A stretch of 32,000 nt of DNA from Candidatus Scalindua sp. (GCA_031316235.1 JALDRA010000001.1:420001-452000), one strand, 5' to 3'; counted from the first letter of the stretch, positions 839-27,354 are shown. The notes: generated by a model not told the origin, from the letters alone. Program-made: numbers and translations.

Positions 839-858
839 CCAGGACCATCATTACTGTT

Positions 859-3570: not shown

Positions 3571-3595
3571 GGTTTCTTATCTTCGTATTCATTGA

Positions 3596-3710
3596 TACAC
3601 TAAAACTGATTTGGTTTTCGGTTTTACCGGAAACCAAATCTTGGTTGCTGTTATACTCGCTCAATTTTATCTCGGATTTTATCCGAAATCCAGTATGAGA
3701 TGAGTATATA
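3596..3710 (+). repeat. Family-1 bipartite hairpin repeat, short form, copy 1 (X-then-Y orientation on + strand)
   Basis: Reads tacactaaaactgatttggttttcggttttaccggaaaccaaatcttggttgctgttatactcgctcaattttatctcggattttatccgaaatccagtatgagatgagtata. It aligns end-to-end with eight other copies. It lies 26 nt upstream of the mtaB start. Confidence 0.92.
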
Positions 3711-3742
3711 CGAAGCGGAAGCGGGTCAGGACAGCAAATTTA

Positions 3743-3771
3743 CTTGACACTATCTTACGACAGACATAGAC
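3743..3771 (+). promoter_or_regulatory. Sigma70-like promoter (TTGACA-17 nt-TAGACT)
   Basis: A perfect -35 TTGACA at 3743-3748, a 17-nt spacer, and TAGACT at 3766-3771. It faces the GC-rich segment and the Nudix gene. Pattern match only. Confidence 0.3.
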
Positions 3772-3785
3772 TTTAATTCAATCAT

Positions 3786-3982
3786 AATATTCTGACTGGT
3801 CAAGCGCATCCATTCTGCCCGGAGGTAAGCTCGCAGAATGGCACATTTTATTCAAGATTGCTGCCCTGTGTCCCAGCGCCAGGACGATTGCATCCCGCAC
3901 CCGGGTGAATCCGTCCGGCAGACCCCGTCCGAACCGGCATGGGCAGGTGACAATCATTCGGGCGATTGTGCTGATGCACGCA
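3786..3982 (+). other. GC-rich, stem-rich intergenic segment (candidate sRNA or 5' leader; class unknown)
   Basis: A sharp local rise in G+C inside AT-rich spacer. Perfect 9-bp hairpin CCATTCTGC(3810-3818)/GCAGAATGG(3833-3841). Long-range CTGCCC(3851-3856)/GGGCAG(3941-3946). ACAATC/GATTGT hairpin at about 3950-3969. Overlapping ORFs on both strands (77 aa minus, 58 aa plus) lack an RBS or any recognisable motif. Confidence 0.25.
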
Positions 3983-4079
3983 AAAAAAATGAGGTTACAA
4001 TTTATATCCATTAAAGAGTTAAAGAGAAAATCGCTGCAGGCAGTTAACTGAAAAAAACTGTTTCACACGCTCCAATACA

Positions 4080-4670
4080 ATGAAGGTGACTATAAAAAAA
4101 AAAGAAAGAGTCTACAATAACCTCTTCAAGGTTGACAAGGCCATCCTTCAACACGAGAAATTTAATGGTACCATGAGTAAGGAGATAGTGAGATTAAATT
4201 TCAACAGGGGCAACACCGTAGCAGTCTTACTCTATAATCCGACAACCGAATCCGTCATACTCGTCAAGCAATTTCGCTATCCCGCTTACGTGGACAACGG
4301 TCCGGGGTGGCTCATCGAATGTGTTGCCGGAATAATAGACAATGGTGAAATATCTGTAGCAAAAAAGGAGGTGTTAGAAGAAACAGGATTCAAGGTTGAT
4401 GCGTTACTATATTTAACACAGATTTACCCGAGCCCGGGAGGCTGCTCTGAAAAAATCAGCCTCTATCTTGCGTATGTAGGAGCTGATGACAAGGTCAAAG
4501 AGGGAAACTACATGGGTGTTGGAAATGAAGATATCTGTATAGTGGAAGTGCCTCTTGAAAAAGCACTTGATATGATTAAGAGCGGAGAAATCTGTGATGC
4601 GAAAACCATTATCAGCCTCTTTTTCCTTCGTGATAGAGTTGGGGCATGCCCGAATGAAACCATTCATTAG
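4080..4670 (+). CDS. Nudix hydrolase (nucleoside-diphosphate-sugar pyrophosphatase, NudF/NudK-like)
   Basis: 196 aa. Nudix box AGIIDNGEISVAKKEVLEETGF (GX5EX7[RK]EVXEEXG pattern). The length and N-terminal region fit ADP-ribose/GDP-mannose pyrophosphatase-type enzymes. Confidence 0.8.
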   Translation: MKVTIKKKERVYNNLFKVDKAILQHEKFNGTMSKEIVRLNFNRGNTVAVLLYNPTTESVILVKQFRYPAYVDNGPGWLIECVAGIIDNGEISVAKKEVLEETGFKVDALLYLTQIYPSPGGCSEKISLYLAYVGADDKVKEGNYMGVGNEDICIVEVPLEKALDMIKSGEICDAKTIISLFFLRDRVGACPNETIH

Positions 4671-4806
4671 CCCACCGTCTTACTGCCTTACATAGATTCC
4701 AGACACATCCTGCCCTAACTTACTTTGCTTTCCTGCCTGCTGTCGGACGGATCGAGCAGGGAGATCTGATTCATCCGGCGGGCATTTACTCCTGCAAACC
4801 GGCTGA

Positions 4807-4918
4807 TATACTCATCTCATACTGGATTTCGGATAAAATCCGAGACAAAATTGAGCGAGTATACCTTCACCCAGATTTGATTTCCGGTAAAACCGAAAAC
4901 CAAATCGGTTTTAGTATA
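4807..4918 (-). repeat. Family-1 bipartite hairpin repeat, short form, copy 2 (inverted orientation)
   Basis: Reads tatactcatctcatactggatttcggataaaatccgagacaaaattgagcgagtataccttcacccagatttgatttccggtaaaaccgaaaaccaaatcggttttagtata, the reverse complement of the copy-1 architecture. Confidence 0.92.
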
Positions 4919-4945
4919 TCATTGCACTGAGAGAGGAGTTTAAAT

Positions 4946-5551
4946 CTGAACAACAAAACCATATTTGTAGACGTTGATACCCAATTTGATTTCATGGACC
5001 CCCGGGGAACTCTTTATGTCCCTGGCGCTGTGGACATAAGAGGCAATCTTAAAAAACTTTTCGATTTTGCGAAAGAACACAAAATCAGGATCCTCTCCTC
5101 AGTTGACGCTCATAGTATCGGGGACAAGGAGTTTCAGCATTTCCCTGCCCATTGTGTAAAAGAGACCAGGGGTATTGAAAAAATCGATATCACGAAATGT
5201 GACGATTTCATTGTTATTGAAAACATCAAACAACGCATTCCTCTCTCTCTCTTGAACCCGCAGCAGATAATTATAGAAAAGCAATCACTGGACATATTTG
5301 ATAATATCAATACAGAAACTATCATTAACACCCTGAATGCCGAGAGTTACGTGATATTTGGTGTGGCAACAGACTATTGCATCAAGGCTGCCGCACTTGC
5401 TCTTCACAAACGGAATCACACCGTTTCGCTGGTCACCGATGCGGTAAAAGCAATGACACCAGGAGGGAAAAAAGAGGCTTTAACCGAAATGAAGGATGCT
5501 GGCATTATTTTTATAACCACAGAGAGTATTTTAGAGGAGAATTACCAGTAA
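4946..5551 (+). CDS. Isochorismatase/cysteine-hydrolase family protein (nicotinamidase-like), probable non-AUG (CTG) start
   Basis: The track ORF starts at ATG 4994. The in-frame codons upstream encode NNKTIFVDVDTQFDF, the conserved N-terminal VDxQxDF motif that carries the family's catalytic Asp. No ATG/GTG/TTG lies between the in-frame TGA (4928) and 4994. CTG at 4946 sits 7 nt after the strong SD GAGAGGAG (4931-4938). GVATDYCI later in the protein holds the catalytic Cys. Confidence 0.75.
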   Translation: MNNKTIFVDVDTQFDFMDPRGTLYVPGAVDIRGNLKKLFDFAKEHKIRILSSVDAHSIGDKEFQHFPAHCVKETRGIEKIDITKCDDFIVIENIKQRIPLSLLNPQQIIIEKQSLDIFDNINTETIINTLNAESYVIFGVATDYCIKAAALALHKRNHTVSLVTDAVKAMTPGGKKEALTEMKDAGIIFITTESILEENYQ

Positions 5552-5655
5552 AAATGTGTTCGAAAGCATCACAGGTTTGAAGTAAAAAAGAGCTAACATG
5601 TTATGGTGAAAAACCTGACGTTTTATCAAAACCCTTGACAGAAAAACTTTTTTAC

Positions 5656-5684
5656 TTGACGACTCCTTGATCAAATCATACAAT
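5656..5684 (+). promoter_or_regulatory. Sigma70-like promoter for rpsU (TTGACG-17 nt-TACAAT)
   Basis: TTGACG at 5656-5661, a 17-nt spacer, and TACAAT at 5679-5684. This is about 55 nt upstream of the rpsU start. Pattern match only. Confidence 0.4.
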
Positions 5685-5738
5685 ACGTACCATTTATTTT
5701 TTAGTAATTCTGTAAATTTAGAGATGGAGTCAGCATTT

Positions 5739-5933
5739 ATGGCCAAGGTTCAAATTTCCGAAAATGAGAGTTTACGCGAAGCGGTGAGAAGATTCAAGAA
5801 AATGTGCGATAAGGAAGGCATTATCAATGCATCGAAGCGCTATGCCTACTATGAAAAGCCTTCAGACAGGCGCCGCCGTGAAGCAAACAGGAGAATAAAG
5901 AACATTAAAAAGGCACAAGATGAGCTTTTCTAA
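5739..5933 (+). CDS. rpsU: 30S ribosomal protein S21
   Basis: MAKVQISENESLREAVRRFKKMCDKEGIINASKRYAYYEKPSDRRRREANRRIKNIKKA is canonical S21. The true start is ATG 5739 (SD GAGATGGAG 10 nt upstream), not the track start at 5667. Confidence 0.92.
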   Translation: MAKVQISENESLREAVRRFKKMCDKEGIINASKRYAYYEKPSDRRRREANRRIKNIKKAQDELF

Positions 5934-6152
5934 CGCTATGCATCGTATCATCATGAACCCCTGGCTATAAAAAGTGGAATTTTGCACTTAGTAATAACTT
6001 CAATACATCCAACTCATCATCTTAATATCGACATAAGTTGTTCGCGGTGTGGCTATCAAATCTCATCATTTGCCCCCTCATAATTTAAGTGAGCTGAACT
6101 CAACATCATACCTACCATCAGTACCATACCAGCTCCGCACAAACTATGCTTG

Positions 6153-6292
6153 TATACTAAAACCGATTTGGTTTTCGGTTTTAACGGAAACCAAATCTTG
6201 GTTGCTGGTATCCCCGGACAAAAAACGCCGAGGACTATACTCGCTCAATTTTGTCTCGGATTTTATCCGAAATCCAGTATGAGATGAGTATA
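6153..6292 (+). repeat. Family-1 bipartite hairpin repeat, long form (with 24-nt linker insert), copy 3
   Basis: Same X and Y modules as copy 1, plus ccccggacaaaaaacgccgaggac (6212-6235) between them. It lies 59 nt upstream of the radical SAM gene. The 6049..6282 ORF is a translation of this repeat. Confidence 0.92.
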
Positions 6293-6351
6293 TTTAAACC
6301 AACCTGTCTTTTTTTCTTTCAACAGTTCGACTTTTTCATGTTCGGTAAAAA

Positions 6352-7314
6352 ATGACTGTACCTATAACTCAAAAACCGTGGATAAAGACGCACCGGTATT
6401 ATCCATTTCGTTATTTTTTGAGAGAACTGTACCCTTTCAAAGTACACAAAATCTCTCTCCATGCCGGTTTCACATGCCCTAACAGGGACGGACTGGCAGG
6501 CTCAGGAGGCTGCACGTATTGTGACAATGAAAGTTTCAGTCCAAATGTCAAGAAAGAAGCCCTGACCATAACGGAACAGGTAGAAAATGGTGTTCAGTTT
6601 TTAAAGAGAAGATACGGTGCGGAAAAGTTTATTGCCTATTTTCAGTCATTCACAAATACCTATGCAGATGTCAAAACCTTAAAAACCCGTTATGATGAGG
6701 CATTGCTCCACAAAGACATCATTGGAATTTCAATTGGTACAAGGCCCGATTGTATTACCGATGATGCGCTGAATCTCATAGATAGCTATACAGAAAAGTA
6801 TCATGTATGGATTGAATATGGTTTACAGTCAATCCATGACCGTACATTGCAGCTGGTGAATCGTGGACACAGTTACAAGGAATTTGAAGATGCCATAGGG
6901 CGTACAAAGCAGAAGTCAAACATAAAAATCTGTGCGCACGTTATTCTTGGCCTCCCTGGTGAGGATTGGGAAGATATGATGGAGACAGCAGAGGCACTCT
7001 CTACCCTTGACATTGATGGCCTTAAGCTCCACCATCTTTATGTCGCCAGAAACACCTCAATGGCAAATGATTTTTTTACGGGTAACATCAAGACCATGAA
7101 CATGGAAGAATATGTCTCTACCGCATGTGACTTCCTTGAAAGGATCCCGCCCGGGGTAGTCATCCAGAGGTTGGTCGGTGATACCCACGGAGGCACGTTA
7201 CTCTCACCTCTCTGGCACGTGAGTAAAAACGAGGTTCTTTCCGCAATTACGGACGAATTAAGACGCCGAAATACTTATCAGGGTATAAGATGTATCCCCT
7301 GCAGTGCAAAATGA
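6352..7314 (+). CDS. Radical SAM protein, TIGR01212 (YhcC-like) family
   Basis: 320 aa. HAGFTCPNRDGLAGSGGCTYCDN plus GTRPDC...EYGLQS...NRGH...GLPGE are collinear with E. coli YhcC. Confidence 0.88.
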   Translation: MTVPITQKPWIKTHRYYPFRYFLRELYPFKVHKISLHAGFTCPNRDGLAGSGGCTYCDNESFSPNVKKEALTITEQVENGVQFLKRRYGAEKFIAYFQSFTNTYADVKTLKTRYDEALLHKDIIGISIGTRPDCITDDALNLIDSYTEKYHVWIEYGLQSIHDRTLQLVNRGHSYKEFEDAIGRTKQKSNIKICAHVILGLPGEDWEDMMETAEALSTLDIDGLKLHHLYVARNTSMANDFFTGNIKTMNMEEYVSTACDFLERIPPGVVIQRLVGDTHGGTLLSPLWHVSKNEVLSAITDELRRRNTYQGIRCIPCSAK

Positions 7315-7357
7315 GTGGTCCGGTCTGCCACGGGGCGGACAATTCCATCTCTCGCTC

Positions 7358-8287
7358 TCATTCCCTGCTTTTATCATCTGTTTCGAGGGTGATATTACCA
7401 TTGACTTGACTAAGTACCTCCTGATTGGTTTCCGGCAAAGCCGTAAACTTAGTCCTGATTAAATTGTTAATCCTGCGATCTTCCTCCTGGATGAACGACT
7501 CCACCAGGGGGATCCTCAAGACCAGCTCACGGGCAACTTCTTCACTTGCCCGGGCAGCATAGACATCTCTCAGACTCATATAGTTCTGAAACGACGCAAT
7601 GACAAAATCAAGTGGATTTGTTGCTATACGGATATCATTATCATATCGTTTATGCTCACCCTCAAAAAAGATACTTCCGTCTACCGTAGATATACACTTA
7701 ATATGTAAACCTATCCTGATCTGGGCAAAAAGTGTGTAATACGAGTTCTTATAATCCGTGATCTTTCCATAAATCAGTGCATCGGCCCCGAGTATTCTGC
7801 CCAACTCCTGGGGCGTAGTGTTGTACAAATCATTAGGGGTCTTGATATTGAGAGCGTTTAATACTTTATCGACATACATGAGTTCTACATCTTCAAATTC
7901 ACGGGCCGCGAAATGGCCAAAGAAAAACCTTCGTAATCTATTTGCATATGTCCAGTTCCAGTCACTCTCTTTATCTTTATTAAACCTGGGGATGGGAACC
8001 TCATTTAAGATATAGTTCCCCCCTACCAGGTTATCAAATGGCAGAATAGCCACTTTTTTAGGAGGGTTTTTGTAAAATGTATCCAAAATCTCAAATTCCT
8101 TATCTCCTGGATCGATTTGATAAATCCTATCTATCGTATTTTTTTTCCCATGATCTGAAACACCCTCTTCATCCAGAAAGAAGTTCTCATCTCCCGTTGT
8201 CCGCCGGTTACTGGAAGAACACCCCGTCATCAAAGATGAAAAAGCAATTACGATCATAAAACCACTCAATATCTTCCACAAAGACAT
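7358..8287 (-). CDS. Lipoprotein, DUF799/GNA1162-like
   Basis: 309 aa. Lipobox SSLMTGCSSS. KKVAILPFDN...GADALIYGKITDYKNSYY resembles the DUF799 pattern (ILVVPPVN...GADAVLYVTITEYG). The family assignment is from memory. Confidence 0.6.
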   Translation of the reverse strand: MSLWKILSGFMIVIAFSSLMTGCSSSNRRTTGDENFFLDEEGVSDHGKKNTIDRIYQIDPGDKEFEILDTFYKNPPKKVAILPFDNLVGGNYILNEVPIPRFNKDKESDWNWTYANRLRRFFFGHFAAREFEDVELMYVDKVLNALNIKTPNDLYNTTPQELGRILGADALIYGKITDYKNSYYTLFAQIRIGLHIKCISTVDGSIFFEGEHKRYDNDIRIATNPLDFVIASFQNYMSLRDVYAARASEEVARELVLRIPLVESFIQEEDRRINNLIRTKFTALPETNQEVLSQVNGNITLETDDKSRE

Positions 8288-8347
8288 ACAATTCCTCCCT
8301 TTTATAACTTTTCAGGCACGGATGCACACCCATTAAGACGTTAACCA

Positions 8348-8695
8348 TCATTCACTATCTTCAATCTTCTTCCGGAGTTTTTTCTTCACAGATCTTTTCC
8401 TCTTGCTCTGATGCACGTGCTGTTTAACGTAGCGGGGTTCTTTTGTTGGAATCCGCTCTTTCTCCTCAATATTCAGCTCTAACAATTTTACCTGCAGTCT
8501 CTTGAGGGCAAGCTCTCTGTTTCTTATCTGTGAGCGTGACTCTGTTGCAATTATCCTGATACCCGTTGGTTTATGCAGCAACCTTACGCAGGACATAGTC
8601 TTGTTCTTATGCTGCCCGCCCGGTCCGGAGCTCTTGAAACAATCTATCTCCACCTCTTTCCTCAGATTTCTTAAATCAATTGAGTATCTTTCCAT
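8348..8695 (-). CDS. arfB: Alternative ribosome-rescue factor ArfB-like (GGQ peptidyl-tRNA hydrolase domain with basic tail)
   Basis: 115 aa. SSGPGGQHKNKTMSCVRLLHKPTGI (GGQ motif) is followed by a Lys/Arg-rich C-terminal tail, as in YaeJ/ArfB. Confidence 0.78.
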   Translation of the reverse strand: MERYSIDLRNLRKEVEIDCFKSSGPGGQHKNKTMSCVRLLHKPTGIRIIATESRSQIRNRELALKRLQVKLLELNIEEKERIPTKEPRYVKQHVHQSKRKRSVKKKLRKKIEDSE

Positions 8696-9055
8696 TCACT
8701 ATCGAATTTGTGCATCCCCTGCACAGAAAAACGTGGTTCCCTGATTTATTGACATTAAGATGAAAATTCAATCTAATCAGCCCTCTTCATCAGGGCAACT
8801 CCCCCTTTAATGGGAAGGTTTTGTCTTCAGACGGAAGCCCGGGGGGCTGTTCTTCGTAATTTCTCCTCTATAGCATTTTAAAACTCTTTGACCCAGACGA
8901 AAATACTGAGTTATATTTCCTCACCATACGACAGTTTACAATTATTGTATCTCAATTCAATGAAAAACTTTCTGGCGAATACTGAAAAAAAAGTGGAAAT
9001 CTCCAAAAGTTTTGTTTACTGTCCGTCACAATGAGTTATAATCTGGATTAATGAG

Positions 9056-9114
9056 TATACTCATCTTGCAAGGGCTTTCACAAAAAATCCGAAAACCATT
9101 ATGAGATGAGTATA
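9056..9114 (+). repeat. Family-1 repeat, isolated Y-module variant (copy 4)
   Basis: Reads tatactcatcttgcaagggctttcacaaaaaatccgaaaaccattatgagatgagtata. The ends are TATACTCATCT/AGATGAGTATA. The right half matches the ..ATCCGAAAACCATTATGAGATGAGTATA variant also seen in copies 6 and 7. Confidence 0.8.
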
Positions 9115-9171
9115 TACATAATTTATCAAGAGTGCACAGCACCGAGAAACACTATTTCGAGAGGATTGAAG

Positions 9172-9591
9172 ATGCCAAAGGCTATTATGAAAACGGAAAA
9201 AGGTACCATCAATTTAGAGCTTTTTGAAAACGATGCCCCTGAAACTGTAAAAAATTTTATCAATCTGTCAAAGAAGGGATTCTATGACGGATTAACCTTC
9301 CACCGGGTAATTCCAAATTTCATGATCCAGGGAGGCTGCCCTGACGGAACGGGTATGGGAGGACCAGGCTACAAGATCAAATGTGAAATCAATACACAGC
9401 TGCATACTCCCGGCACACTCTCGATGGCGCATGCGGGCAAAGATACAGGGGGAAGTCAGTTCTTCATCACGCATGTCGACACACCTCACCTTGATGGAGT
9501 TCATACTGTCTTCGGACGTACCCGGGATATGGATGTTGTCAATCAGATTCAAGTTGGAGATACGATAGAATCGGTAACCATTGAAGATTGA
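9172..9591 (+). CDS. Peptidyl-prolyl cis-trans isomerase, cyclophilin type
   Basis: [32 protein letters not shown]...[15 protein letters not shown]...[19 protein letters not shown] is canonical cyclophilin. The start is set at ATG 9172 (SD GAGAGGA 5-6 nt upstream). The track start at 9106 lies inside the repeat (gagATGagtata). Confidence 0.9.
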
Positions 9592-9657
9592 GCTTCCGCC
9601 AATCCTGCTGGTTGTTCATGTGCAAAAAATCAAGCCCTCAGAGAAAGTCCGGGGAAA

Positions 9658-9739
9658 GTCCTCGGCGCCTGGTTGTCCGGGGATGCCATTAACCAGGCTT
9701 TGGTTTTTGAAAAATCTAACACCAGATCGGTTTTAGTAT
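9658..9739 (-). repeat. Family-1 repeat, degenerate fragment: linker insert plus X-module (copy 5)
   Basis: Reads gtcctcggcgcctggttgtccggggatgccattaaccaggctttggtttttgaaaaatctaacaccagatcggttttagtat. It matches the reverse complement of the long-form linker plus X hairpin. It is more diverged than the other copies. Confidence 0.75.
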
Positions 9740-9885
9740 CTCTTTAATAATCGAATCCATGCCAGAAAATTATTCCCACAGACTGCCATTAAGGATGCTG
9801 TCATCGGTAAGATAGCATGAAGCAATAAAAGAGCTCTTTTTTCTCCTGCCCGGCGAGAGTCCGTTCCCGTGACTTTCTCTGACCG

Positions 9886-10836
9886 TTATTCCAGGCGCAC
9901 TTCCCCAATATAGACCGTTCTCCCTGCAAAGGGTTCAAGCGTGTAGATAACAAGATACCGTACACGCCAGTCAACGATATTTCGTTGCGGAAGGAAATCA
10001 TCGATTGGGACCCGCAGAGAATTAACACCGGGACTCAATTGAAATCCCTGATAGAAATTTTCGGTACTGTGATGCTCACGGTGACGGGATTGAATGCGGG
10101 GTCTCACGCTTATGTTCAGCGGCAGACCCTGTTGTGAGTCGTTAAAGAGCTCTACCACAAGGTGTGAATAAGAACTCCAGTCCGGTAGAGGCTCCTTCAG
10201 GCTGATACCAGGCCAGGTTTGATCTGCAAACCTGATCTTCAGAACCTTCCTATCCCGGTACGCTGACCAGCTGCAGGGGGCATCAACAATCTCGACGTCG
10301 CTCTCTGTTGACATGGTAACGTAATCCAGAAACCAGTCAAAGCCTAACAGACGCGGCTGCACAGCATACACATACCCCGTAATTGTCGTAGCGATGACTA
10401 AGGGATATTGGGAAAGTGCAAGGAGAACCACTCCGGCCAGGAAAAATGCTTTGCGGGCATTCAGGAAAGAATACCGGTACCAGGCAATGAGGTGTACCGA
10501 TGCAAGTGCACCGGACATATCGAGAAAAAAGTCTTCCCAGCTTGGCTGCCGCCCGGTGAACAGCTGAAAATACTCAGTAGCTGAAGCAAGAAATCCAGCC
10601 AGGAGAAGAGTGAATAACAGCGCCGGAAAATCCCCCATACTTCTTGTGGGGATAACTGAGATAAGACGCCAGATGAGATAGGTTACGCAGGCAAACCAGG
10701 GACCATGCGCCCCATTCTGGATACCCCGTGCTATACGGCTGTCCCCACCGAAATCAATGGTCTGCTGCAAAACAAGCAGCAGAACAAAGAGGGTTACAAG
10801 GGCAAGGATCTTCTTCCTGGTTGTTATCCTGATCAT
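9886..10836 (-). CDS. VanZ-like membrane protein with unassigned C-terminal extracytoplasmic domain
   Basis: 316 aa. The N-terminal ~170 aa has several TM segments and the VanZ-type motif EYFQLFTGRQPSWEDFFLDMSGA. I do not recognise the ~140-aa soluble C-terminal part. Confidence 0.6.
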   Translation of the reverse strand: MIRITTRKKILALVTLFVLLLVLQQTIDFGGDSRIARGIQNGAHGPWFACVTYLIWRLISVIPTRSMGDFPALLFTLLLAGFLASATEYFQLFTGRQPSWEDFFLDMSGALASVHLIAWYRYSFLNARKAFFLAGVVLLALSQYPLVIATTITGYVYAVQPRLLGFDWFLDYVTMSTESDVEIVDAPCSWSAYRDRKVLKIRFADQTWPGISLKEPLPDWSSYSHLVVELFNDSQQGLPLNISVRPRIQSRHREHHSTENFYQGFQLSPGVNSLRVPIDDFLPQRNIVDWRVRYLVIYTLEPFAGRTVYIGEVRLE

Positions 10837-11524
10837 GGTTTATACCGTAATGTCCCCTCCACTGTATCCAGCAACCAATTCAGTAATCATCTTTTCTCAC
10901 TTCAGCAGGTTTTCGTAAGCTTGCCGAAAGATTTCCTGAAAGGGGTACCATTAGACAAAGATTCACGGATCCGTCTTACACTGATACAAATTTGAGCCCC
11001 TGCCTTAATGAGTTTATTGCGTATTGCGTAACAATGAGAAGTTATTTGTATACGCCCTGTTTAAATCCATAGCCTCCCACTTGTAGTATCTTGACACGTA
11101 TACCTATAGCTCCCGGTATCACAGACAGATGGATATGGCAATTTACCGGTGAGATATACGGCGAACTGGATAGACGTTAATGTTGATTTATTATACAAAA
11201 ATTTAAAATACCAACAATGAAACTGTTCTTCCTATAAAATACTGAATTCACATATCCCCCAACTCTTTATTCCATATTGACATAAAGATACCACTTTAAC
11301 CTTGAATCCTGAATTGTCAGTTAGGCAACTATTTTGCGTATACAAACTGATTCCCAGAATCCAAACAAATTCAAAGACTTACGAAAATCAGATTCTCCTC
11401 ACCCGCAGGCAGGCCTGACCTCCATTATTAAGGTTGAAGCTCTATCCATAGAGGTGTTACCACTTTAAGAGAAATAATTGCCCTGCGCAATTGTTTTCTG
11501 TCGTTTATGTAATGAGAAAATAGA

Positions 11525-12820: not shown

Positions 12821-13296
12821 TTCACTGCAAACCCGGAAACCCGCTCGGCGGTTCCCGCTGAGGTACTTTAGTTGCCGCGGCTAAACACAGGTATCATTAC
12901 GGTGACCCCCCTGTTACCGGCACCCTGCACCTTTTCAACCTTACATGACAACCCACCCTCAATACCGGCTTGATGGCAAGAAATTGCTTTTCAGTTTGAT
13001 ATGATGATACACAGAGAGAAAGACGAATGATTATATCAATTTATGGTAAGGGTCTGTAAGCTTTCCCCTTGTCATATCACCTGAATTAAAAAAGCACATA
13101 GCTATCTAAGAATTTTTAAGCTAGAATCAGTAAAAAGCATATTGAATGTACTATAGCCGGATTATAGTCAATCCCAGCCGAAGCAGCCGGAATCAACAGG
13201 AAAAGTAATAAGTTTTGAACTCCTTTAAAATAAATTGACAGCAGCATGACAGGCATAGTATCAGGCACGTATCGTTACGTAAAAACCCTTTAAATT

Positions 13297-14022
13297 ATGA
13301 TAGACATCCATGCACATATCCTCCCCTCTCTGGATGATGGGCCGATTACGTTTGAGGAATCAATCGAGATGTGTAAGATTGCAGCAAATGACGGCATTTC
13401 GACAATCATTGCAACACCGCATTCAAAAGATGGTGTGTATGAAGCACAGGGTAAAAATATCCTTAAATCGGTTGAGGAGCTTAATCTCCGGTTACAAGAA
13501 GCCCGCATCCATTTGAAAATACTCCCCGGAGCAGAGCTGCACATTAATGAGAGATTGCTGGAAGACATCAGAAACGGTGACGCCCTGACGATGAACAATA
13601 ACAGAAAGCATATCCTTCTCGAACTCCCCTTCTTCTTCATACCGCCAGGGACTGAAAAACTCATATTCAACCTTCAAGCGTTGGGTATTATTTCAATCAT
13701 TGCTCATGCTGAAAGGATAACCTTTTTTCAGAAGAACCCTAAATCATTACAGAAACTGGTTGATTCCGGTATAATGGTCCAGGTGACAGCCCAGAGCCTG
13801 ACCGGGTTTTTCGGTTCAAGAGAGAAGAAGTGCGCCGAACGGTTTTTAAAACAGAAGATGGTACACTTCATTGCCTCAGATGCACACTCACCCCACGACA
13901 GGCCTCCAATTCTATCGAAGGCTGTGGAAAAAGCATCCCGGATTATAGGAAAAGAAGAGGCGGAAGCCCTTGTCTTCAAAAACCCCGGACAGATTATCAC
14001 CGTGCCAGCGGAAACCAATTAA
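13297..14022 (+). CDS. PHP-family tyrosine-protein phosphatase, CpsB/YwqE-like (capsule/EPS regulation)
   Basis: 241 aa. MIDIHAHILPSLDDGP...IIATPH...IIAHAER...IASDAH are the metal-binding His/Asp motifs of CpsB-type PHP phosphatases. Confidence 0.85.
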   Translation: MIDIHAHILPSLDDGPITFEESIEMCKIAANDGISTIIATPHSKDGVYEAQGKNILKSVEELNLRLQEARIHLKILPGAELHINERLLEDIRNGDALTMNNNRKHILLELPFFFIPPGTEKLIFNLQALGIISIIAHAERITFFQKNPKSLQKLVDSGIMVQVTAQSLTGFFGSREKKCAERFLKQKMVHFIASDAHSPHDRPPILSKAVEKASRIIGKEEAEALVFKNPGQIITVPAETN

Positions 14023-14351
14023 GAGCACCAAATGGCCATGCGTAGGTTAATAAATTACAAATCTCAAATCCCGGATCGTAAATCATAATTCGGAATTTTC
14101 TGTCTTCATTGGTCAATAAATTTTTATCCCGTTCGGATCTGTTCACTGTCAGCGAAACCTGCTCAGGTTCTGAGCTGGTCTGGATGAAGGAATTTGTTTG
14201 CGTTCAATTTGTTATCATGATAGCATTTCTCCTGTTTTTCCCCTTGAATCGAGTACCTTTTGTATTCATTAGACAATTCGGGTACCGTATACTCTCTATC
14301 CCTCTTTTTCTCCAGGAGAAAAGCCGGTATTCCTGACAGTTCAGCAGTAAT

Positions 14352-15266
14352 ATGCACAAGAAAATGAAATACATAGATTGTAACTTATGCAATAGTAACG
14401 AAACGACTCTCCTGTTTGTCAAAGATGGCTTCAACCACGTAAAATGTAATTCGTGCGGTCTAATCTATGTCAACCCACGTCTGGAGGATTCCCAGGAGAC
14501 CCTGGATAGTTTTTACACATCCGGTGCGGATGCTGATAGTTTTATAAAAGATCTTCTCAAAAGAGCCTATTCTCCCAAAAGACAGAAAATATTTTCTGCT
14601 GAAATAAAAAAGATGGAAAGATACAGAAGGCTGAACAGGATTCTCGATATTGGATGTTCATTCGGGGGATTTTTATATGCGGCAAGGAATTGTGGTTGGG
14701 AAATAAAAGGGATTGAGACTGTTCAGGAAGTCGGCAACTATGGTAAAGAGCTGTACGATCTCGATATTTTCCTTGGAAAGCTGGAGGATTCGAATCTGCC
14801 ACCCTCTTCGTTTGACGTAATCAGGCTGAACAATATCATAGAGCACATACCGGATCCCTCTGAATTCCTTTCAAGAACATACCTCCTTCTCAGGAAAGGA
14901 GGGCTCTTAACCGTTTCAACAACAAATTTCGACAGCTTTTCTGTCTCACTCTGCGGGAAGGAGTGGATTTACTTTGATGGACAGCATCATATCGTCCTCT
15001 TTACTCCGGCAACCTTAAAACGGCTCCTTGAAAAGAGTGGTTTTACCACTATTGACCTCTATACAAAAGGTTTTCATATAAAGATAAAAGACCACCATGC
15101 CGGATTGATAAAAGACATGCTGTTGAAGATATCGGAAAAGATCGTGTCTCAACTTATCCCCTTTACCAAAAAAGGCCACAGGCTGAGAGTCCTGGCGGAA
15201 AAGAGATACTGTTTACCAGGACAGGCAGAGACAGATTTTGACAAAAAAATACCAGAAAAGGAGTAA
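14352..15266 (+). CDS. Class I SAM-dependent methyltransferase with N-terminal Cys4 zinc-ribbon
   Basis: 304 aa. CNLCNS...CNSCGL ribbon and SAM motif I ILDIGCSFGGF. The stop is 3 nt before the carbamoyltransferase start. The start could instead be ATG 14364. Confidence 0.8.
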   Translation: MHKKMKYIDCNLCNSNETTLLFVKDGFNHVKCNSCGLIYVNPRLEDSQETLDSFYTSGADADSFIKDLLKRAYSPKRQKIFSAEIKKMERYRRLNRILDIGCSFGGFLYAARNCGWEIKGIETVQEVGNYGKELYDLDIFLGKLEDSNLPPSSFDVIRLNNIIEHIPDPSEFLSRTYLLLRKGGLLTVSTTNFDSFSVSLCGKEWIYFDGQHHIVLFTPATLKRLLEKSGFTTIDLYTKGFHIKIKDHHAGLIKDMLLKISEKIVSQLIPFTKKGHRLRVLAEKRYCLPGQAETDFDKKIPEKE

Positions 15267-15269
15267 TAA

Positions 15270-16844
15270 ATGATTATTTTGGGAGTAACTCATCCAATTT
15301 CGTGGAACAATGGAGCATGTATCCTCGTTGACGGCCAGTTGGTTGCCATGGCAGAGGAAGAGAGGTTTAATCGTTTTAAGCATTCACCGAGGGTGCCTGC
15401 TGACTTGTCTATAGAATTTTGTCTCAACAGGGCAGGAGTGACACTCGATGATGTTGATTATATTGCCGTAGGATGGGAATCTTCGAAATTTAAAAGCAGC
15501 AAAAAAAGATTTGTGTGGGATTTCCTCCTGAAACAACTGCCATTCAGTCATAAAAATAACAAGATAAGGTTTGTAAATCATCATGTTGCCCATGCATTAA
15601 GCTCTTATTATGTCTCTGGATATGATCATTCAAATATCATATCACTGGATGGTTATGGCGGCAGCGAATCAGGTATCCTGGCAATTGGAGAGGGTGATAA
15701 ACTCAGGGTAGTCAAGTCAATACCGAACAAAAACAGCTGGGGTCACCTGTACGGTGAAATCACAAGAGTGCTGGGTTTCCAATCTCACAGCGATGAAGGA
15801 AAGGTTATGGGACTTGCAGCATACGGGCAACCGATTGAAAATGAATTTACCTTCATCGACTGGGATAACGATATACCCGTAATCGATAAAAAAGGTTTCA
15901 AGAAATACCTCTCCGGTATCGAACCAAGGAAGAAGGAGGAAGCCTTGAACCAGCATCATAAAGACATGGCTGCAACGGTACAGCATACACTTGAGAGGGC
16001 GGTTTTGCAGATGAGTTCCTATCTCCTTGACATATCGAAGTCTAAAAACCTGTGTCTGTCGGGTGGATGCGCCTTAAACTGCTCAATGAATGGCGTACTT
16101 TTACGGTCAGAATATGTCGATAATATATTTGTCCAGCCTGCGGCCCATGATATAGGTACGGCATTAGGAGCTGCCCTCAGCGTATATAAAGATGTAGTTG
16201 GACACAGGCCTGATATTGTCCTTGAACATCCCTATTACGGGCCGGATTACTCCAATAAAGAAGTTGAACACGATTTAAAGAAGTACAAGCTGAATAATTA
16301 CAAGTATTGTAATACTATCGCGGAAGAGACTGCCGCATTGATTGCGGAGAATAAGACGGTAGGCTGGTTTCAGGGCAGGATGGAGTTTGGCCCAAGAGCA
16401 CTGGGAGGGAGAAGCATCCTTGCAAATCCAAAGAACAGGGATATGAAGGACATTGTAAACAAAAGCATAAAGGGAAGAGAACCATGGCGGCCCTTCGCCC
16501 CGTCATTTCTGGCAGAAGATTGCAGTGATTACGTAAAAAATCCTTACAATTCGCCATTCATGATCATCGCTTTTGAGGCCAGAGAGGAAAAAGTTTCTGA
16601 TATAGCATCAGCCGCACATGTGGATAATACCATAAGAGTGCAGACAGTAAGAAAAGAGGTCTCTCCAAAGTATTGGGACTTGATACATGAATTCAAAAAG
16701 ATTACGGGAGTTCCTGCACTCCTTAATACCAGTTTCAATGTGGCTGGTCAGCCGATAGTCTGCTCACCCCGCGATGCAATAATGACATTTTTCGGCTGCG
16801 GTCTTGACTATCTTGCGATAGAAGACTATCTCGTCTGGAAGTAG
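15270..16844 (+). CDS. Carbamoyltransferase, NodU/CmcH family
   Basis: 524 aa. MIILGVTH..NGACILVDGQLVAMAEEERFNRFKH, ...VNHHVAHALSSYY and ...LNTSFN are hallmark motifs of NodU/CmcH O-carbamoyltransferases. Confidence 0.88.
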   Translation: MIILGVTHPISWNNGACILVDGQLVAMAEEERFNRFKHSPRVPADLSIEFCLNRAGVTLDDVDYIAVGWESSKFKSSKKRFVWDFLLKQLPFSHKNNKIRFVNHHVAHALSSYYVSGYDHSNIISLDGYGGSESGILAIGEGDKLRVVKSIPNKNSWGHLYGEITRVLGFQSHSDEGKVMGLAAYGQPIENEFTFIDWDNDIPVIDKKGFKKYLSGIEPRKKEEALNQHHKDMAATVQHTLERAVLQMSSYLLDISKSKNLCLSGGCALNCSMNGVLLRSEYVDNIFVQPAAHDIGTALGAALSVYKDVVGHRPDIVLEHPYYGPDYSNKEVEHDLKKYKLNNYKYCNTIAEETAALIAENKTVGWFQGRMEFGPRALGGRSILANPKNRDMKDIVNKSIKGREPWRPFAPSFLAEDCSDYVKNPYNSPFMIIAFEAREEKVSDIASAAHVDNTIRVQTVRKEVSPKYWDLIHEFKKITGVPALLNTSFNVAGQPIVCSPRDAIMTFFGCGLDYLAIEDYLVWK

Positions 16845-17202
16845 CAGTTCTTTAGTGAACCCGAGAAACTATTTGTAAATCATTAGTGTTCACGGGTTCA
16901 CCTTAGGATTATGGAATTCGGATTGCAGAATAAGAAATAATAGTTCACCCAAGAGATTAAAAAAGAAAAGGCGATAGAAAGTATAAAAAAGAATTGGACT
17001 ATTAATTTCCTTTAAAATTTTCGTTCTGGTGAATTCTTACGACTGGAAAACAAAATTTGTCAGGAAAACAGTTTTTTTTTCTACAGACTTTTGAGTATCT
17101 TTAGCGGTACACCCTGATCTTCTGCTCCATAGAATCCTTTCATTGCTTTTCCTCTTCGATAACCATGTTCTCTCATAACAGTAACAACTGAAAACGTATT
17201 AT

Positions 17203-17315
17203 TATACTCATCTCATAATGGTTTTCGGATAAAATCCAAGCTAAAACGAAGCGAATATAACTGCTACCAAGATTTGGTTTTTCAAAAAGCCTGAAACCAA
17301 ATCGGTTTTAGTATA
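17203..17315 (-). repeat. Family-1 bipartite hairpin repeat, short form, divergent copy 6
   Basis: Reads tatactcatctcataatggttttcggataaaatccaagctaaaacgaagcgaatataactgctaccaagatttggtttttcaaaaagcctgaaaccaaatcggttttagtata. The X hairpin keeps a 10-bp core with a remodelled apex. Confidence 0.88.
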
Positions 17316-17342
17316 ACGTACTCTGGAGGAACCGTAAACAGT

Positions 17343-17464
17343 GGTTGAACGCAAACTGCCCAGATACAAGGCGCGTAAGAATTTCGTTACCGGAGCGTAC
17401 TCAAGTACGTGAGGATCACGAATTTCTTACAGCAACGCAGCAGCTGGATAGTTTGCGTTCAACC
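17343..17464 (+). repeat. Family-2 122-bp long-hairpin element, copy 1
   Basis: Perfect 15-bp terminal inverted repeat ggttgaacgcaaact/agtttgcgttcaacc. Inner 13-bp stem gtaagaatttcgt/acgaatttcttac. Conserved apex accggagcgtactcaagtacgtgaggat. About 80% identical (97/122 by hand alignment) to 29440-29561. Confidence 0.88.
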
Positions 17465-18112
17465 AGAGGGTTTCCGTGCCACCACAATGACCGACTTCGT
17501 ATAATCAACCCCTATCATTCGATGGAAAGGTGCGATAAATATACGTTTGAGAAAAAATTTCACTCTTGAAGCGTTATAGGTGCGGTATATTTCCTGGACC
17601 TCAAGACCGGCACGCAGGCACAATCCGCCAAGCTCCTCATAGCTGTAGGGAGTGCGGTGTGTAGAATCCATGAGATAGCAGGATGGATTAAATATATTGG
17701 GTGTGCTCATAACCAGGCATGCACCGGACTGCAGAACCCTCGCACACTCCCTGATCAGATCCTCCCCCTCCTGAAGCGTAAGGTGTTCGATAACTTCCCA
17801 CGAAATAATAAGGTCGAAGTGCTCCTCAACTTCATGCAGGCTTCCGTAATCAGGTGAAAGAGCCGGATCTACATCCACCGTCTTGAATATAATATCCGCA
17901 TAAATTCTCTTCAAACGCCGGCCCCACTCCGAATTACCGGCTCCGACGTCTAATATCCGTGCACCATCTTTCATTAACGATCGAACAAGCTCAAGACGTT
18001 TCCGTAAAACGGGAACCTTCCAGATTGAATTATACCGCTTATGAATCTCGTCACGATTACGGAACACATTGGACCATGAAATTCTCGTATCGGTTTGTTG
18101 TGCATTTGACAT
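17459..18112 (-). CDS. Class I SAM-dependent methyltransferase
   Basis: 217 aa. Motif I ILDVGAGNSEWG and post-I/II motifs (DLIISWEVIEHL). The last two sense codons and the stop lie inside the family-2 element. Confidence 0.8.
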   Translation of the reverse strand: MSNAQQTDTRISWSNVFRNRDEIHKRYNSIWKVPVLRKRLELVRSLMKDGARILDVGAGNSEWGRRLKRIYADIIFKTVDVDPALSPDYGSLHEVEEHFDLIISWEVIEHLTLQEGEDLIRECARVLQSGACLVMSTPNIFNPSCYLMDSTHRTPYSYEELGGLCLRAGLEVQEIYRTYNASRVKFFLKRIFIAPFHRMIGVDYTKSVIVVARKPSG

Positions 18113-18164
18113 CTTCTTATTTAGTACTTAAAAAAACCGAGAGGTTAAATCGAAACTACCCTGA

Positions 18165-18276
18165 TATACAAAAACCGATCTGGTTTTCGGTTTTACCGGA
18201 AACCAGATCTTGGTGAAGGTATACTCGCTCAATTTTATCTCGGATTTTATCCGAAAACCATTGTAAGATGAGTACA
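18165..18276 (+). repeat. Family-1 bipartite hairpin repeat, short form, copy 7
   Basis: Reads tatacaaaaaccgatctggttttcggttttaccggaaaccagatcttggtgaaggtatactcgctcaattttatctcggattttatccgaaaaccattgtaagatgagtaca. It carries a compensatory T-A to C-G change in the X stem. It lies 53 nt upstream of the methyltransferase start. Confidence 0.9.
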
Positions 18277-18539
18277 TTACCGCAACTCGGCAGATGGGCA
18301 GTATTCTTTCCGGCACCATTTAAACGCATGGAAGGGTGAGGAGTCAAGCCTATTTTAACTCTCGGCCAAACCTTTACAAGGGATACTTATCGTTCCAGGG
18401 ATGTCATCCCCGCATGTTTTCTGGCAGGAATCGAGAGTAAGTTCACTGCGAAAGAAGAGCTAATCAGCCGTAACCCCTCTATAAAACAATGGTTAAGCAT
18501 GGCCATAATTCCTGAACTGAACACCTCGTTAATAATTAC

Positions 18540-18567
18540 TTGATATTTTCTCGTATAAAATCATAAT
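18540..18567 (+). promoter_or_regulatory. Sigma70-like promoter (TTGATA-16 nt-CATAAT) reading through repeat copy 8 into the glycosyltransferase gene
   Basis: TTGATA at 18540-18545, a 16-nt spacer, and CATAAT at 18562-18567. Pattern match only. Confidence 0.3.
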
Positions 18568-18608
18568 ACTACCTTACCAAGAGCATGATCTCTGTCAGCT
18601 TTGCAGCG

Positions 18609-18748
18609 TATACTGAAACCGCTTTGGTTTTCGATTTTACCGGAAACCAGATCTTGGTTAATGGTATCCCCGGACAAAAAGCGCCGAGGACCTTACTCGC
18701 TCAATTTTATCTCGGATTTTATCCGAAATCCAGTATGAGATGAGTATA
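18609..18748 (+). repeat. Family-1 bipartite hairpin repeat, long form, copy 8
   Basis: 140 bp, with 138/140 identity to copy 9 by direct comparison. Contains the 25-nt linker insert ccccggacaaaaagcgccgaggacc. Confidence 0.93.
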
Positions 18749-18795
18749 TTGAGAAAATAATGAGTGTAAATAATGAGTGTATAGAGCCGCGTTTT

Positions 18796-19992
18796 ATGAA
18801 AATAGCCCTGATAATCTACAAATTTTTACCCTCAAAAGGTGGCGGAGAGGGGTATCTCTCATGCCTTGCAAACCAACTGGTGAAAAGAGGCCATGAAGTA
18901 CATGTTTTTGCCCACGATTGGGAAAATAATAATAGCCTCATACAGTTCCATACCATACCGGCCATACGATTTCCAAAATTTCTCAAAGAGGTTTCGTTTG
19001 TGATAAACAGCCGGAGAGCTCTGCATGGAGAGGATTTTGACATAGTACAGGTTGTTGGAAGAGCACTGGGAATGAATATTTTTAATCCTCACTGTGGTGT
19101 GGAAAAGGCATGGCTGAAACAGGACTTTCAGTCAATCAGAAATCCCTTTTACCGATCACTGAAACAGGTTACAAGATTTTTCAGCCTGAGACAGAATTTT
19201 ATTCTGTGGCTCGATAAAAAACAGTATACGGATGAAAAAATATCCAGAATTATTGCCATCTCCGACATGATAAAGAACGACATGATACACTACCATCATG
19301 TTGATCCGCAAAAGATAACCGTAATCTACAACGGTGTGGATACCGGGAGATTCAATCCGTCCAGGAGAGACGATTTCAGAAAAGTAATCAGAAAAAAACT
19401 GTCTATTGGTGAAGAATTTGTGTTACTATATGTCAGCAATAATTTCAGATTAAAGGGCCTTGCCACACTCATACGGGCTCTTGGAGTACTGAAGCAGACC
19501 CATCCGGATTTCAAGGCGCTGATAATCGGGAGAGGGAAAAAGAGTCCATACGGTAAATTGGCAAAGAAACTCGGTTGTCTCGATAACGTACTCTTCTTAG
19601 GTCAGGTTAATGATATTGAAAAATACTATGCAGCATCTGACTTATATGTCCACCCCACTCTTTACGATTCCTGTTCACTGGTGGTCACGGAAGCCCTGGC
19701 AAGCGGCCTCCCGGTTATTACAACACAATATGACGGGGCAAGCGGTTTAATCGATGACGGCAAAGACGGTTTTGTCATGAAGGATCCCCTGGATTACCAG
19801 AATTTAGCGGAAAAGATAGCGGTTTTTTTTGATGAGGAAGTGAGACAGAAGGCCTCGATCGCGGCACGAAAAAAGGCAGAAAAATACCCCGAAGAGGAAA
19901 ACTGTGAGAAAATTATTGCGGTATTTAAAGAAGCAGCAGGTGACTTTTCTGAAGTGCTGCCGGAAACCCGCCGGCCACATGTCATTACCTGA
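18796..19992 (+). CDS. Glycosyltransferase family 4 (GT-B, group 1)
   Basis: MKIALIIYKFLPSKGGGEGY... is a typical GT4 N-terminus, and the C-terminal part has the ...YVHPTLYDSCSLVVTEALASGLPVITT EX7E-type motif. The track start at 18760 lies inside a 13-bp tandem duplication next to the repeat, so ATG 18796 is preferred. 18760 remains possible. Confidence 0.85.
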   Translation: MKIALIIYKFLPSKGGGEGYLSCLANQLVKRGHEVHVFAHDWENNNSLIQFHTIPAIRFPKFLKEVSFVINSRRALHGEDFDIVQVVGRALGMNIFNPHCGVEKAWLKQDFQSIRNPFYRSLKQVTRFFSLRQNFILWLDKKQYTDEKISRIIAISDMIKNDMIHYHHVDPQKITVIYNGVDTGRFNPSRRDDFRKVIRKKLSIGEEFVLLYVSNNFRLKGLATLIRALGVLKQTHPDFKALIIGRGKKSPYGKLAKKLGCLDNVLFLGQVNDIEKYYAASDLYVHPTLYDSCSLVVTEALASGLPVITTQYDGASGLIDDGKDGFVMKDPLDYQNLAEKIAVFFDEEVRQKASIAARKKAEKYPEEENCEKIIAVFKEAAGDFSEVLPETRRPHVIT

Positions 19993-20047
19993 ACCTTTAT
20001 CCTGCTGAAAGGGTATTCGGAAAGATTATCGGGCTGGCAGAAGGAGA

Positions 20048-20187
20048 TATACTTAAACCGATTTGGTTTTCGATTTTACCGGAAACCAGATCTTGGTTAA
20101 TGGTATCCCCGGACAAAAAGCGCCGAGGACCTTACTCGCTCAATTTTATCTCGGATTTTATCCGAAATCCAGTATGAGATGAGTATA
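20048..20187 (+). repeat. Family-1 bipartite hairpin repeat, long form, copy 9
   Basis: 140 bp, differing from copy 8 at only 2 positions. A direct repeat of copy 8 located 1,439 bp downstream. The 20097..20357 minus-strand ORF is a translation of it. Confidence 0.93.
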
Positions 20188-20239
20188 TACGGGTTTATTG
20201 AGTGCAGGAGAAATACAATTAACGGGATGTAATACCTAT

Positions 20240-21259: not shown

Positions 21260-21343
21260 TTCTTTAACCATTATTCGGCACCAGAGGTACAGGTCAGAGA
21301 GTGAAATTTAGCAATTAAAAATGAACACAACTGGTCAAGACTT

Positions 21344-27345: not shown

Positions 27346-27354
27346 CACTCAAGT

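Follow-up and report, generated by a model that had tools for sequence, protein, structure and literature searches.

A probable TA-duplicating MITE family of bipartite hairpin repeats in the intergenic DNA of Candidatus Scalindua

The window and the anatomy of its repeats

The DNA analysed here, called the window, is a stretch of 32,000 nucleotides from Candidatus Scalindua sp. (GCA_031316235.1 JALDRA010000001.1:420001–452000). Its open reading frames (ORFs) are housekeeping and envelope-glycan genes, which encode MiaB-like, NUDIX, isochorismatase and radical SAM enzymes, a cyclophilin, a porin O/P, CpsB/CapC, methyltransferases, a carbamoyltransferase, GT1, GT9 and others. Between these genes lie nine copies of a hairpin repeat, here called the X/Y family after its two modules, X and Y, which may be separated by an insert, I. 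The repeats are probably a family of non-autonomous DNA transposons, i.e. MITEs (miniature transposable elements with inverted repeats), specific to the Candidatus Scalindua lineage.

A preliminary description of the window had listed the nine copies with their coordinates and strands, and a repeat finder, an alignment and nhmmer recover all of them (Table 1). At three or fewer mismatches, degenerate consensus patterns of X (50 nt) and Y (37 nt) match the window five and seven times, respectively; chance expectation, with 100 dinucleotide-preserving shuffles as the control, is 0.00 for both. Four copies have the architecture XY (112–113 nt) and three the architecture X-I-Y (140 nt). The solitary Y-type unit, c4, has perfect 11-bp terminal inverted repeats, TATACTCATCT...AGATGAGTATA. 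As described earlier, both orientations occur, every copy is intergenic and the window contains no transposase. None of the copies lies within a supported gene, and a Pfam search of the window's ORFs finds no transposase. Several copies are 11–60 nt from start codons; for c1, it is the start of the divergent MiaB-like gene that is 26 nt away. No copies are detected by nhmmer in positions 1–3595 or 20188–32000. An X match at 7425–7448 (24 nt, E = 0.0075), located within a gene, is best read as chance.

Table 1. Repeat copies in the window (c1–c9) and associated elements in the window and in the sampled loci (L numbers)
Feature	Location	Strand	Description
c1	3596..3708	+	XY: X 3596–3645, Y 3652–3708; window-specific Y subfamily
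c2	4807..4918	-	XY: Y 4807–4862, X 4869–4918
c3	6153..6292	+	X-I-Y: X 6153–6202, I 6203–6235, Y 6236–6292
c4	9056..9114	+	Solitary 59-bp Y-type unit, left interior divergent
c5	9658..9739	-	Degenerate X+I fragment without Y; I centre variant GGACAACCAGGCGCC
c6	17203..17315	-	XY; remodelled X apex TTTCA/TGAAA, pairing kept
c7	18165..18276	+	XY; single T-A to C-G double change in X stem
c8	18609..18748	+	X-I-Y; between promoter-like site (18540–18567) and GT1 start (18760)
c9	20048..20187	+	X-I-Y; next glycosyltransferase ORF begins 11 nt downstream
D5 (window copies)	17336–17465, 29433–29562		79% identical to each other
Z (example copies)	L008:4156–4337, L033:2295–2476, L046:6545–6726, L086:5204–5384		Palindromic MITE
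IS110-family element	L067:4511–6209, L112:3246–4941, L125:233–1931		99.6–99.7% identical
Group II intron	L062:~503–2400	-	RF01999 and RF00029; RVT_1 and GIIM ORF 580–1827
F2	L061:5780–6040		At least 24 related places (L119, L068, L094, L104, L115, L090 and others)
GC-rich hairpins	L018:531–694, L028:6573–6741, L036:6376–6566, L120:4894–5087; also L078:7137–7161, L012:1793–1819		Small hairpin modules

The family extends well beyond the window. A scan of one genome per species with the Y core (ATCCGAAANCCANTNTNAGATGAGTA) yields at least 120 eight-kb blocks, and all those listed come from four metagenome-assembled genomes (MAGs) of the Scalindua group: SCAELEC01 and RBC_AMX3 (both Candidatus Scalindua sp.), the Scalinduaceae MAG CBDCUS01 and one Planctomycetota MAG. 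The window is distinct from all four, and its orthologous segments are 79–88% identical to theirs. The window and 120 of these loci form the sample for all family counts given below (~970 kb, ~5% of the four genomes), in which elements were sought by nhmmer with profile hidden Markov models of X, I and Y built from the window copies. A rough, ascertainment-corrected estimate of genome density is one element per ~10–25 kb. In the JGI metagenomes, five contigs carry the general Y core and none matches the Y variant specific to the window. Viral contig, plasmid and phage collections contain nothing similar to the family. Rfam gives no match at the gathering threshold for the whole window and none at E ≤ 1 for a stretch with four copies, and nowhere in the searchable literature are repeats or MITEs of Scalindua or other anammox bacteria described. 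The GT1 protein of the window has a single exact match, a 1363-bp Logan contig (run SRR28338161) that spans window positions 18722–20084, with one end inside c8 and the other inside c9; a genuinely multi-copy repeat yields such breaks.

The common plan of the element consists of an X module of ~50 nt, an optional I module of ~27 nt (33 nt in the model) and a Y module of 57 nt. About 207 elements are found in the sample: 76 XY, 66 XIY, 29 solo Y, 17 solo X, eight IY and a few each of XXY, XYY, XIYY, XI and XXIY. No cluster mixes strands, so the order from X through I to Y is fixed. The elements are 57–194 bp long, mostly 112–113 or 137–141 bp, have no coding capacity and are nearly all hairpin arm. 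The alignment and the profile map agree with the two hairpin modules and the TATACT/AGTATA bounds of the preliminary description, whose 28-nt linker is the discrete optional module I. The ends are sharp: more than 90% of copies start with TATACT and finish with AGTATA. The flanks show no conservation, save for a weak A at -1 and T/A at +1. Units of 57 nt combine the left arm of X with the right arm of Y, and one of them (L102:5038–5094) is a perfect palindrome. The I module is shortened in forms of 131–133 nt, and in forms of 162–194 nt the loop of X holds one or two nested GC-rich hairpins.

The element is built from a palindromic unit of ~57 bp, the two ~26-bp arms of which read TATAC(T/C)...TGGTTT(T/C)CGG. 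The left arm of X (TATACTAAAACC-GATTTGGTTTTCGG), the reverse complement of its right arm (TATACCTTCACCAAGATTTGGTTTCCGG), the left arm of Y (TATACTCGCTCAATTTTATCTCGGAT) and the reverse complement of its right arm (TATACTCATCTCATAATGGTTTTCGGAT) are all related, and X and Y are thus diverged copies of one such unit. In the consensus, 18 of 26 positions agree between the outer arms, TATACTAAAACCGATTTGGTTTTCGG and TATACTCATCTCATAATGGTTTTCGG; these comprise the terminal six bases (TATACT) and an inner block of ten (TGGTTTTCGG). Y alone has terminal repeats of 12–13 bp. In its common mobile form, the element joins X and Y head to tail, with or without I at the junction.

The element inserts at TA and duplicates it

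The target site was established from empty sites, for which both flanks of each element were joined and uninterrupted matches to the joined sequence were sought. In one case, an XIY copy (L108:3582–3721, duplicated as L048:5565–5704) is inserted into a copy of another dispersed repeat, F2. The filled site reads TTAA-TA-[TACT...AGTA]-TA-AATTAC, and the intact F2 copies in L061 and L068 read TTAA-TA-AATTAC. In the other case, an XY copy (L059:515–656) splits a copy of an unrelated hairpin repeat, D5. Here, the filled site is CCTTA-TA-[TACT...AGTA]-TA-TCTGGG, and six intact D5 copies, including both of those in the window, have CCTTG-TA(T/C)-CTGGG. Target duplications of 3 bp and 4 bp fail in one case each, so only a 2-bp TA duplication, with symmetric element ends, fits both. 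The element inserts at TA and duplicates the TA. The same kind of site is seen for a further palindromic family, Z, a copy of which is nested in a Y module in L062 and converts TTT-TA-TA-CCGG to TTT-TA-[TACCC...GGGTA]-TA-TA-CCGG.

Insertion polymorphism, which together with empty sites had been proposed as a check on the repeats, is present as well. SCAELEC01 lacks c3 in the orthologous intergenic region, the orthologous region of RBC_AMX3 (L058 in the case of c7) contains neither c7 nor c9, and several further insertions are not shared between species. Sites occupied in both genomes are those of c2 (L087 of SCAELEC01) and c8 (L058 of RBC_AMX3) and the pair L021/L119. SCAELEC01 also has an X-I-Y copy in the intergenic region of c1, where the site is only possibly shared. 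At the c1 and c2 sites, compared with L087, the window has XY and SCAELEC01 has X-I-Y in the same orientation, which means that either I was gained or lost in place or the sites were occupied independently.

The copies are uniform in sequence. Pairwise identity is 0.88–0.93 within genomes and 0.81–0.93 between them, with the nearest neighbour at ~0.97 in both, and the consensus sequences of individual genomes differ at 0–4 of 107 positions. Copy c8 and its X-I-Y counterpart in L058 are ~93% identical amid diverged flanks; the L021 and L119 copies are nearly identical, in an alignment that averages 92% with the flanks included. At the same time, individual genomes have variants of their own. 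In five of seven window copies, position 38 of Y is T and position 42 is G; among 113 copies of other genomes, T is found at Y38 in one and G at Y42 in none. This variant is present both in window-only copies (c3, c9) and in shared-site copies (c1, c2, c8), and CBDCUS01 has a different diagnostic variant. The genome-specific subfamilies and the 99% identity of c8 to c9 point to recent activity. Static purifying selection does not account for this pattern. Ongoing lineage-specific amplification from near-consensus sources, with some re-use of sites or gene conversion, is the simplest reading.

Mode of spread and alternative explanations

The X/Y elements are short and non-coding, they have terminal inverted repeats and a TA duplication, and their copies are dispersed and polymorphic, all of which are structural features of MITEs. 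The family is new and previously undescribed, as a kind it belongs to well-known selfish DNA (Correia/RUP/Stowaway-like), and it represents no new type of system. The preliminary description, which spoke of an unnamed interspersed hairpin repeat, was correct as to kind.

By analogy with the characterised TA-duplicating systems, the elements are probably mobilised in trans by a DDE transposase of the IS630/Tc1-mariner type. The outer arms of X and Y would serve as the terminal inverted repeats, and the enzyme would cut the element out and paste it into a TA, which becomes duplicated. Such a transposase has two helix-turn-helix domains, by which the two conserved blocks of an arm could be recognised. 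Copies would persist only in intergenic DNA, where they do no harm, and those that end up in untranslated regions (UTRs), c8 for example, may incidentally add stable hairpins to mRNAs. Nearly all bases lie in one of four segments that resemble transposase-binding arms, so only near-consensus copies could propagate and the consensus would change little from species to species. ISY100 of the IS630 family inserts at TA with duplication (34 of 39 insertions in vitro), and its transposase binds the inverted repeats through two helix-turn-helix motifs (PMC2170065). Among bacterial MITEs, Correia, RUP and ERIC have termini of TA and duplicate their target, and RUP has been attributed to IS630-Spn1 (PMC2229807).

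Three points weigh against this account. Only two empty-site comparisons of X/Y elements are precise to the base, the others being blurred by intergenic divergence. Copies at shared sites are 93–98% identical, compared with 41–57% identity at four-fold degenerate sites of adjacent orthologous genes, so neutral decay of old insertions is insufficient, and re-insertion, gene conversion or selection is needed. Finally, neither an autonomous element with matching ends nor an IS630/Tc1-type DDE signature is found in the sample, and the assignment to IS630 is drawn from the TA duplication.

The missing transposase is weak evidence because the sample covers ~5% of the four genomes. Within the sample, clustering of all ORFs of at least 150 residues reveals orthologues only and no multi-copy protein, and pairing of isolated termini in inverted orientation reveals no autonomous parent. 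Neither the Tc1/IS630 catalytic pattern DE[ST]..DN..H..NP[IV]E, searched in six frames, nor tblastn with an approximate Mos1 query produces a match in these ~970 kb. X and Y modules are found 0.2–5 kb apart on the same strand in four cases: IS110-family insertions account for two of them and a group II intron for a third, and the fourth is a coincidence. Inverted repeats of at least 14 bp enclose only D5-flanked genes and one unrelated IS4/IS5-like ORF.

A different construction of the same data is unlikely, if conceivable. X, Y and Z might be an orphan TA-duplicating superfamily that has no conventional autonomous partner in any Scalindua genome, a puzzle long posed by Correia, and that is kept near-invariant between species with saturated synonymous sites by an unrecognised or domesticated enzyme, or by host selection or gene conversion on the hairpins, with I serving as a landing pad for a guide-RNA-directed IS110-family recombinase.

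It is also quite unlikely that the repeats are once-mobile elements that the host now maintains as DNA sites, e.g. for binding of a nucleoid protein or topoisomerase, and that selection or gene conversion keeps uniform. Genome consensuses that barely differ while synonymous sites are near saturation, shared-site copies that stay alike between diverged flanks, and the transposase that was not found in the sample would all suit such sites, as would the window variant in the shared-site copies c1, c2 and c8, which gene conversion would produce. However, unshared insertions are frequent between species, the near-identical young copies c8 and c9 and the copies nested in other repeats point to recent movement, and the genomes tolerate copies that are degenerate, truncated or interrupted. 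That no transposase is found in so small a fraction of the genomes carries little weight here too.

The mosaic of palindromic units with optional linkers is BIME-like and brings to mind the REP/BIME type of repeat, which is spread by a REP-associated tyrosine (Y1/HUH) transposase via single-stranded hairpins. The I module is a specific insertion site of an IS110-family element, much as REPs are of IS621 and ISPpu9/10, and on the + strand of X, G.T mismatches exceed A.C mismatches (84 vs 26), with the excess at a few subfamily-specific positions. Nevertheless, such an origin is very unlikely. Transposition by Y1 enzymes makes no target duplication, and the X/Y family has one; the units are 57 bp and the composites 112–140 bp long, as opposed to 20–40 bp; and clustering of ORFs of at least 150 residues in the sample shows no recurrent repeat-flanked ORF. 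The two REP superfamilies are defined by their GTAG or CGTC tags (PMC3733652), and the X/Y units have TATAC at both ends instead.

Next to be considered is that the repeats are structured RNAs that act in cis, as UTR hairpins, attenuators or small RNAs, and that their fold is under selection. The hairpins are indeed very stable. X and Y both fold strongly on either strand, and c1 as RNA has a folding energy of -41.5 kcal/mol (z = -7.8; z = -7.2 for the opposite strand and -6.4 for DNA). In 47 XY copies, 93.7% of stem cells are paired, compared with 24–43% when the partners are slid. The X-apex variants TTTTCGG/CCGGAAA, TTTTAG/CTAAAA and TTTCA/TGAAA all retain pairing, the last of them in c6, the remodelled apex of which had already been described as complementary. 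The position of several copies close to start codons, that of c8 between a conserved promoter-like site and a gene, and the near-invariance of the consensus across species would also fit an RNA function.

The distribution of the elements relative to genes speaks against a strand-specific RNA family. On a gene map derived from a rough greedy ORF call (coding fraction 0.71), 137 of 140 full elements are intergenic, although ~71% of the DNA is coding. Elements on the 5' side of the adjacent gene are on the same strand as the gene in 62 cases and on the opposite strand in 69; the corresponding numbers are 48 and 55 on the 3' side and 32 and 39 in tandem spacers. Tandem, divergent and convergent spacers are used 71:30:16, in proportion to their total lengths (132, 60 and 34 kb). 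A strand-specific RNA element, be it a riboswitch, attenuator, terminator or small RNA, would show an orientation bias, and there is none in any spacer class. Intergenic, unoriented copies that favour neither the 5' nor the 3' side of genes behave like selfish DNA.

Covariation likewise does not support selection on an RNA fold. Only two pairs in the 47 XY copies carry a change at each partner, a result equalled or bettered by 297 of 500 shuffles, and a separate count of pairs likewise shows pairing without a covariation signal. The earlier statement that the fold is conserved beyond the sequence is therefore not supported; the copies are too alike for covariation to show this. The T-A to C-G change in c7, on which that statement drew, is real, though it is a single event. 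Template switching within a palindrome can make paired changes without selection. Scans with terminator consensus patterns give no consistent call on the elements, and the only promoter-like match within them is the terminal TATACT as an inward-facing -10 hexamer. Considering also the variable occupancy of orthologous sites, the target duplication, the copies nested in other repeats and the lack of an Rfam match even at E ≤ 1, a structured RNA family is highly improbable.

The last alternative, a local duplication or assembly artefact of the window, to which the clustering of nine copies in 16.6 kb and nothing else would point, is refuted, since the copies have unrelated flanks, the family is present in four MAGs that are independent of one another and in five contigs from JGI metagenomes, related genomes contain hundreds of copies (an absence of copies elsewhere was the outcome that the preliminary description had associated with an artefact) and a short-read contig of this locus breaks in c8 and c9, as a true multi-copy repeat would make it do.

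Associated mobile elements and comparison with known systems

The second TA-duplicating family, Z, is a palindromic MITE of 182 bp. The sample holds ~11 full copies of it, all outside the window. The terminal and inner blocks of the X/Y arms recur in the arms of Z, which are 26 bp long (TATACCCATYRCAAAWTGGTTTTCGG), and Z is probably served by the same transposase. The Z copy in L062 that is nested, with TA duplication, in the Y module of an X-I-Y element is itself occupied by a group II intron, which is located at position 108/109, the apex of the 182-bp palindrome. The intron in Z in X-I-Y makes three layers of nesting.

The I module is the site of a 1699-bp IS110-family element (PF01548 DEDD_Tnp_IS110 and PF02371 Transposase_20), the ORF of which is split in all copies. 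The element occupies an identical position of I in two XIY copies of RBC_AMX3 and in one metagenome contig. Its junctions read ...CCCCGGACAAAAG-IS-GCGCCGAGGAC..., with AG on both sides, and the junction of a circular form would create TTGACT and TATATT separated by a 17-nt spacer. The right end, ~330 nt long, could encode a guide RNA. A simple search finds no matches of 7 nt or longer between the non-coding ends of the element and the I target, though such guides are split into short segments.

Three further repeat families accompany the X/Y elements. D5, an unrelated hairpin repeat of ~130 nt (minimum free energy of -58.8 kcal/mol), is represented at least 62 times in the Scalindua DNA of the sample, and 52 of these copies are in SCAELEC01. 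D5 copies often stand on both sides of ordinary genes, and the first of the two in the window adjoins c6. F2 is a dispersed repeat of ~125–260 nt with ~82% identity, found mostly in RBC_AMX3 and not found in the window; one of its copies carries the XIY insertion described above. GC-rich hairpin modules of ~27–30 nt (e.g. CCTGTCTGCGTGCATCGCACAGGCAGG, CCCGTCCGAACGGCTGACAGGCCGGGCGGG) occur in the X loop, in other repeats or alone and may be a further small mobile palindrome family. Together with the nested insertions, these families show that the intergenic DNA of Scalindua contains several layers of small mobile elements.

Some window copies have peculiar surroundings. Just upstream of c8 (within 18530–18608), there is a promoter-like site composed of TTGATA, a 16-nt spacer and CATAAT, which is kept in L058 of RBC_AMX3 amid a diverged spacer. 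By its position, c8 would thus be in the 5' UTR of the GT1 glycosyltransferase gene. Copy c5 is bracketed by a 26-nt inverted repeat (9638–9663 and 9857–9882; 81% complementary, with 193 nt between the arms), which suggests that it lies inside, or was truncated by, yet another element. In the cyclophilin ORF (9106–9591), the first listed ATG falls within c4, in its right arm (AGATGAGTATA). The ORF resembles its SCAELEC01 orthologue only from ~9132 onwards, so the true start is probably downstream.

The genes around the repeats vary as well. The carbamoyltransferase gene (524 residues, window 15270–16844) has no counterpart in the syntenic region of RBC_AMX3 (L058), where the methyltransferase genes that flank its site are only ~320 bp apart. 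The gene content of the glycan-biosynthesis cluster (~13–24 kb) thus varies from one species to another.

It is not possible to grow anammox bacteria in pure culture, and most of what is known of their genomes comes from fragmented MAGs. The X/Y repeats and at least three other hairpin repeat families help explain the breaks in short-read assemblies. The X/Y family also lends itself as a marker with which to type strains and follow genome dynamics in populations of Scalindua. Its bipartite 26-bp arm, TA target and lineage-specific subfamilies make it a compact natural system that could be used to hunt for the responsible transposase. In addition, its I module is a case outside the Proteobacteria in which a multi-copy repeat module serves as the insertion site of an IS110-family element. 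What is known of the principles of MITEs is unchanged by it.

By sequence, the Scalindua family appears to belong to no named family. In other respects, Correia/NEMIS (CREE) of Neisseria are similar to it in several ways: they are non-coding palindromic MITEs of ~100–155 bp, present in high copy number, mostly intergenic and often near gene starts; they have terminal inverted repeats of ~24–26 bp that begin with TATA- and duplicate a TA target; and they have length variants due to internal indels and form strong hairpins when transcribed (PMC2649163, PMC2229807, PMC10969869). The enzyme that mobilises Correia has never been identified (PMC2649163). Correia elements come from another phylum and consist of one unit with a core, whereas the Scalindua element is a dimer of diverged units with an optional insert. 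The Scalindua arms also read differently from the Correia repeat, and we take Correia to be an analogue and not a member of the same family.

The REP/BIME repeats of Enterobacteria and pseudomonads share with the X/Y family the mosaics of palindromic units and linker motifs and the role of landing sites for IS110-family elements. REPs, which are associated with RAYT genes, are 20–40 nt long, bear a GTAG or CGTC tag and insert without a target duplication (PMC3733652). The Scalindua repeats are set apart from this class by their size, the missing tag and the target duplication. ERIC/IRU and YPAL of Enterobacteria are imperfect palindromes of ~127–170 bp that, like the Scalindua element, are intergenic and make a target duplication, ERIC and YPAL being co-transcribed with their neighbours; TA termini are found in ERIC but not in YPAL (PMC2229807, PMC10969869). 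They differ from the Scalindua element in their unrelated sequence and in being single units rather than bipartite. RUP of Streptococcus pneumoniae and the eukaryotic Stowaway elements have known parents with matching inverted repeats, and none is found in the ~970 kb of Scalindua DNA. As in the mechanism proposed for the X/Y family, both are short and non-autonomous, duplicate TA and are attributed to IS630/Tc1-mariner transposases that act in trans (PMC2229807, PMC2170065).

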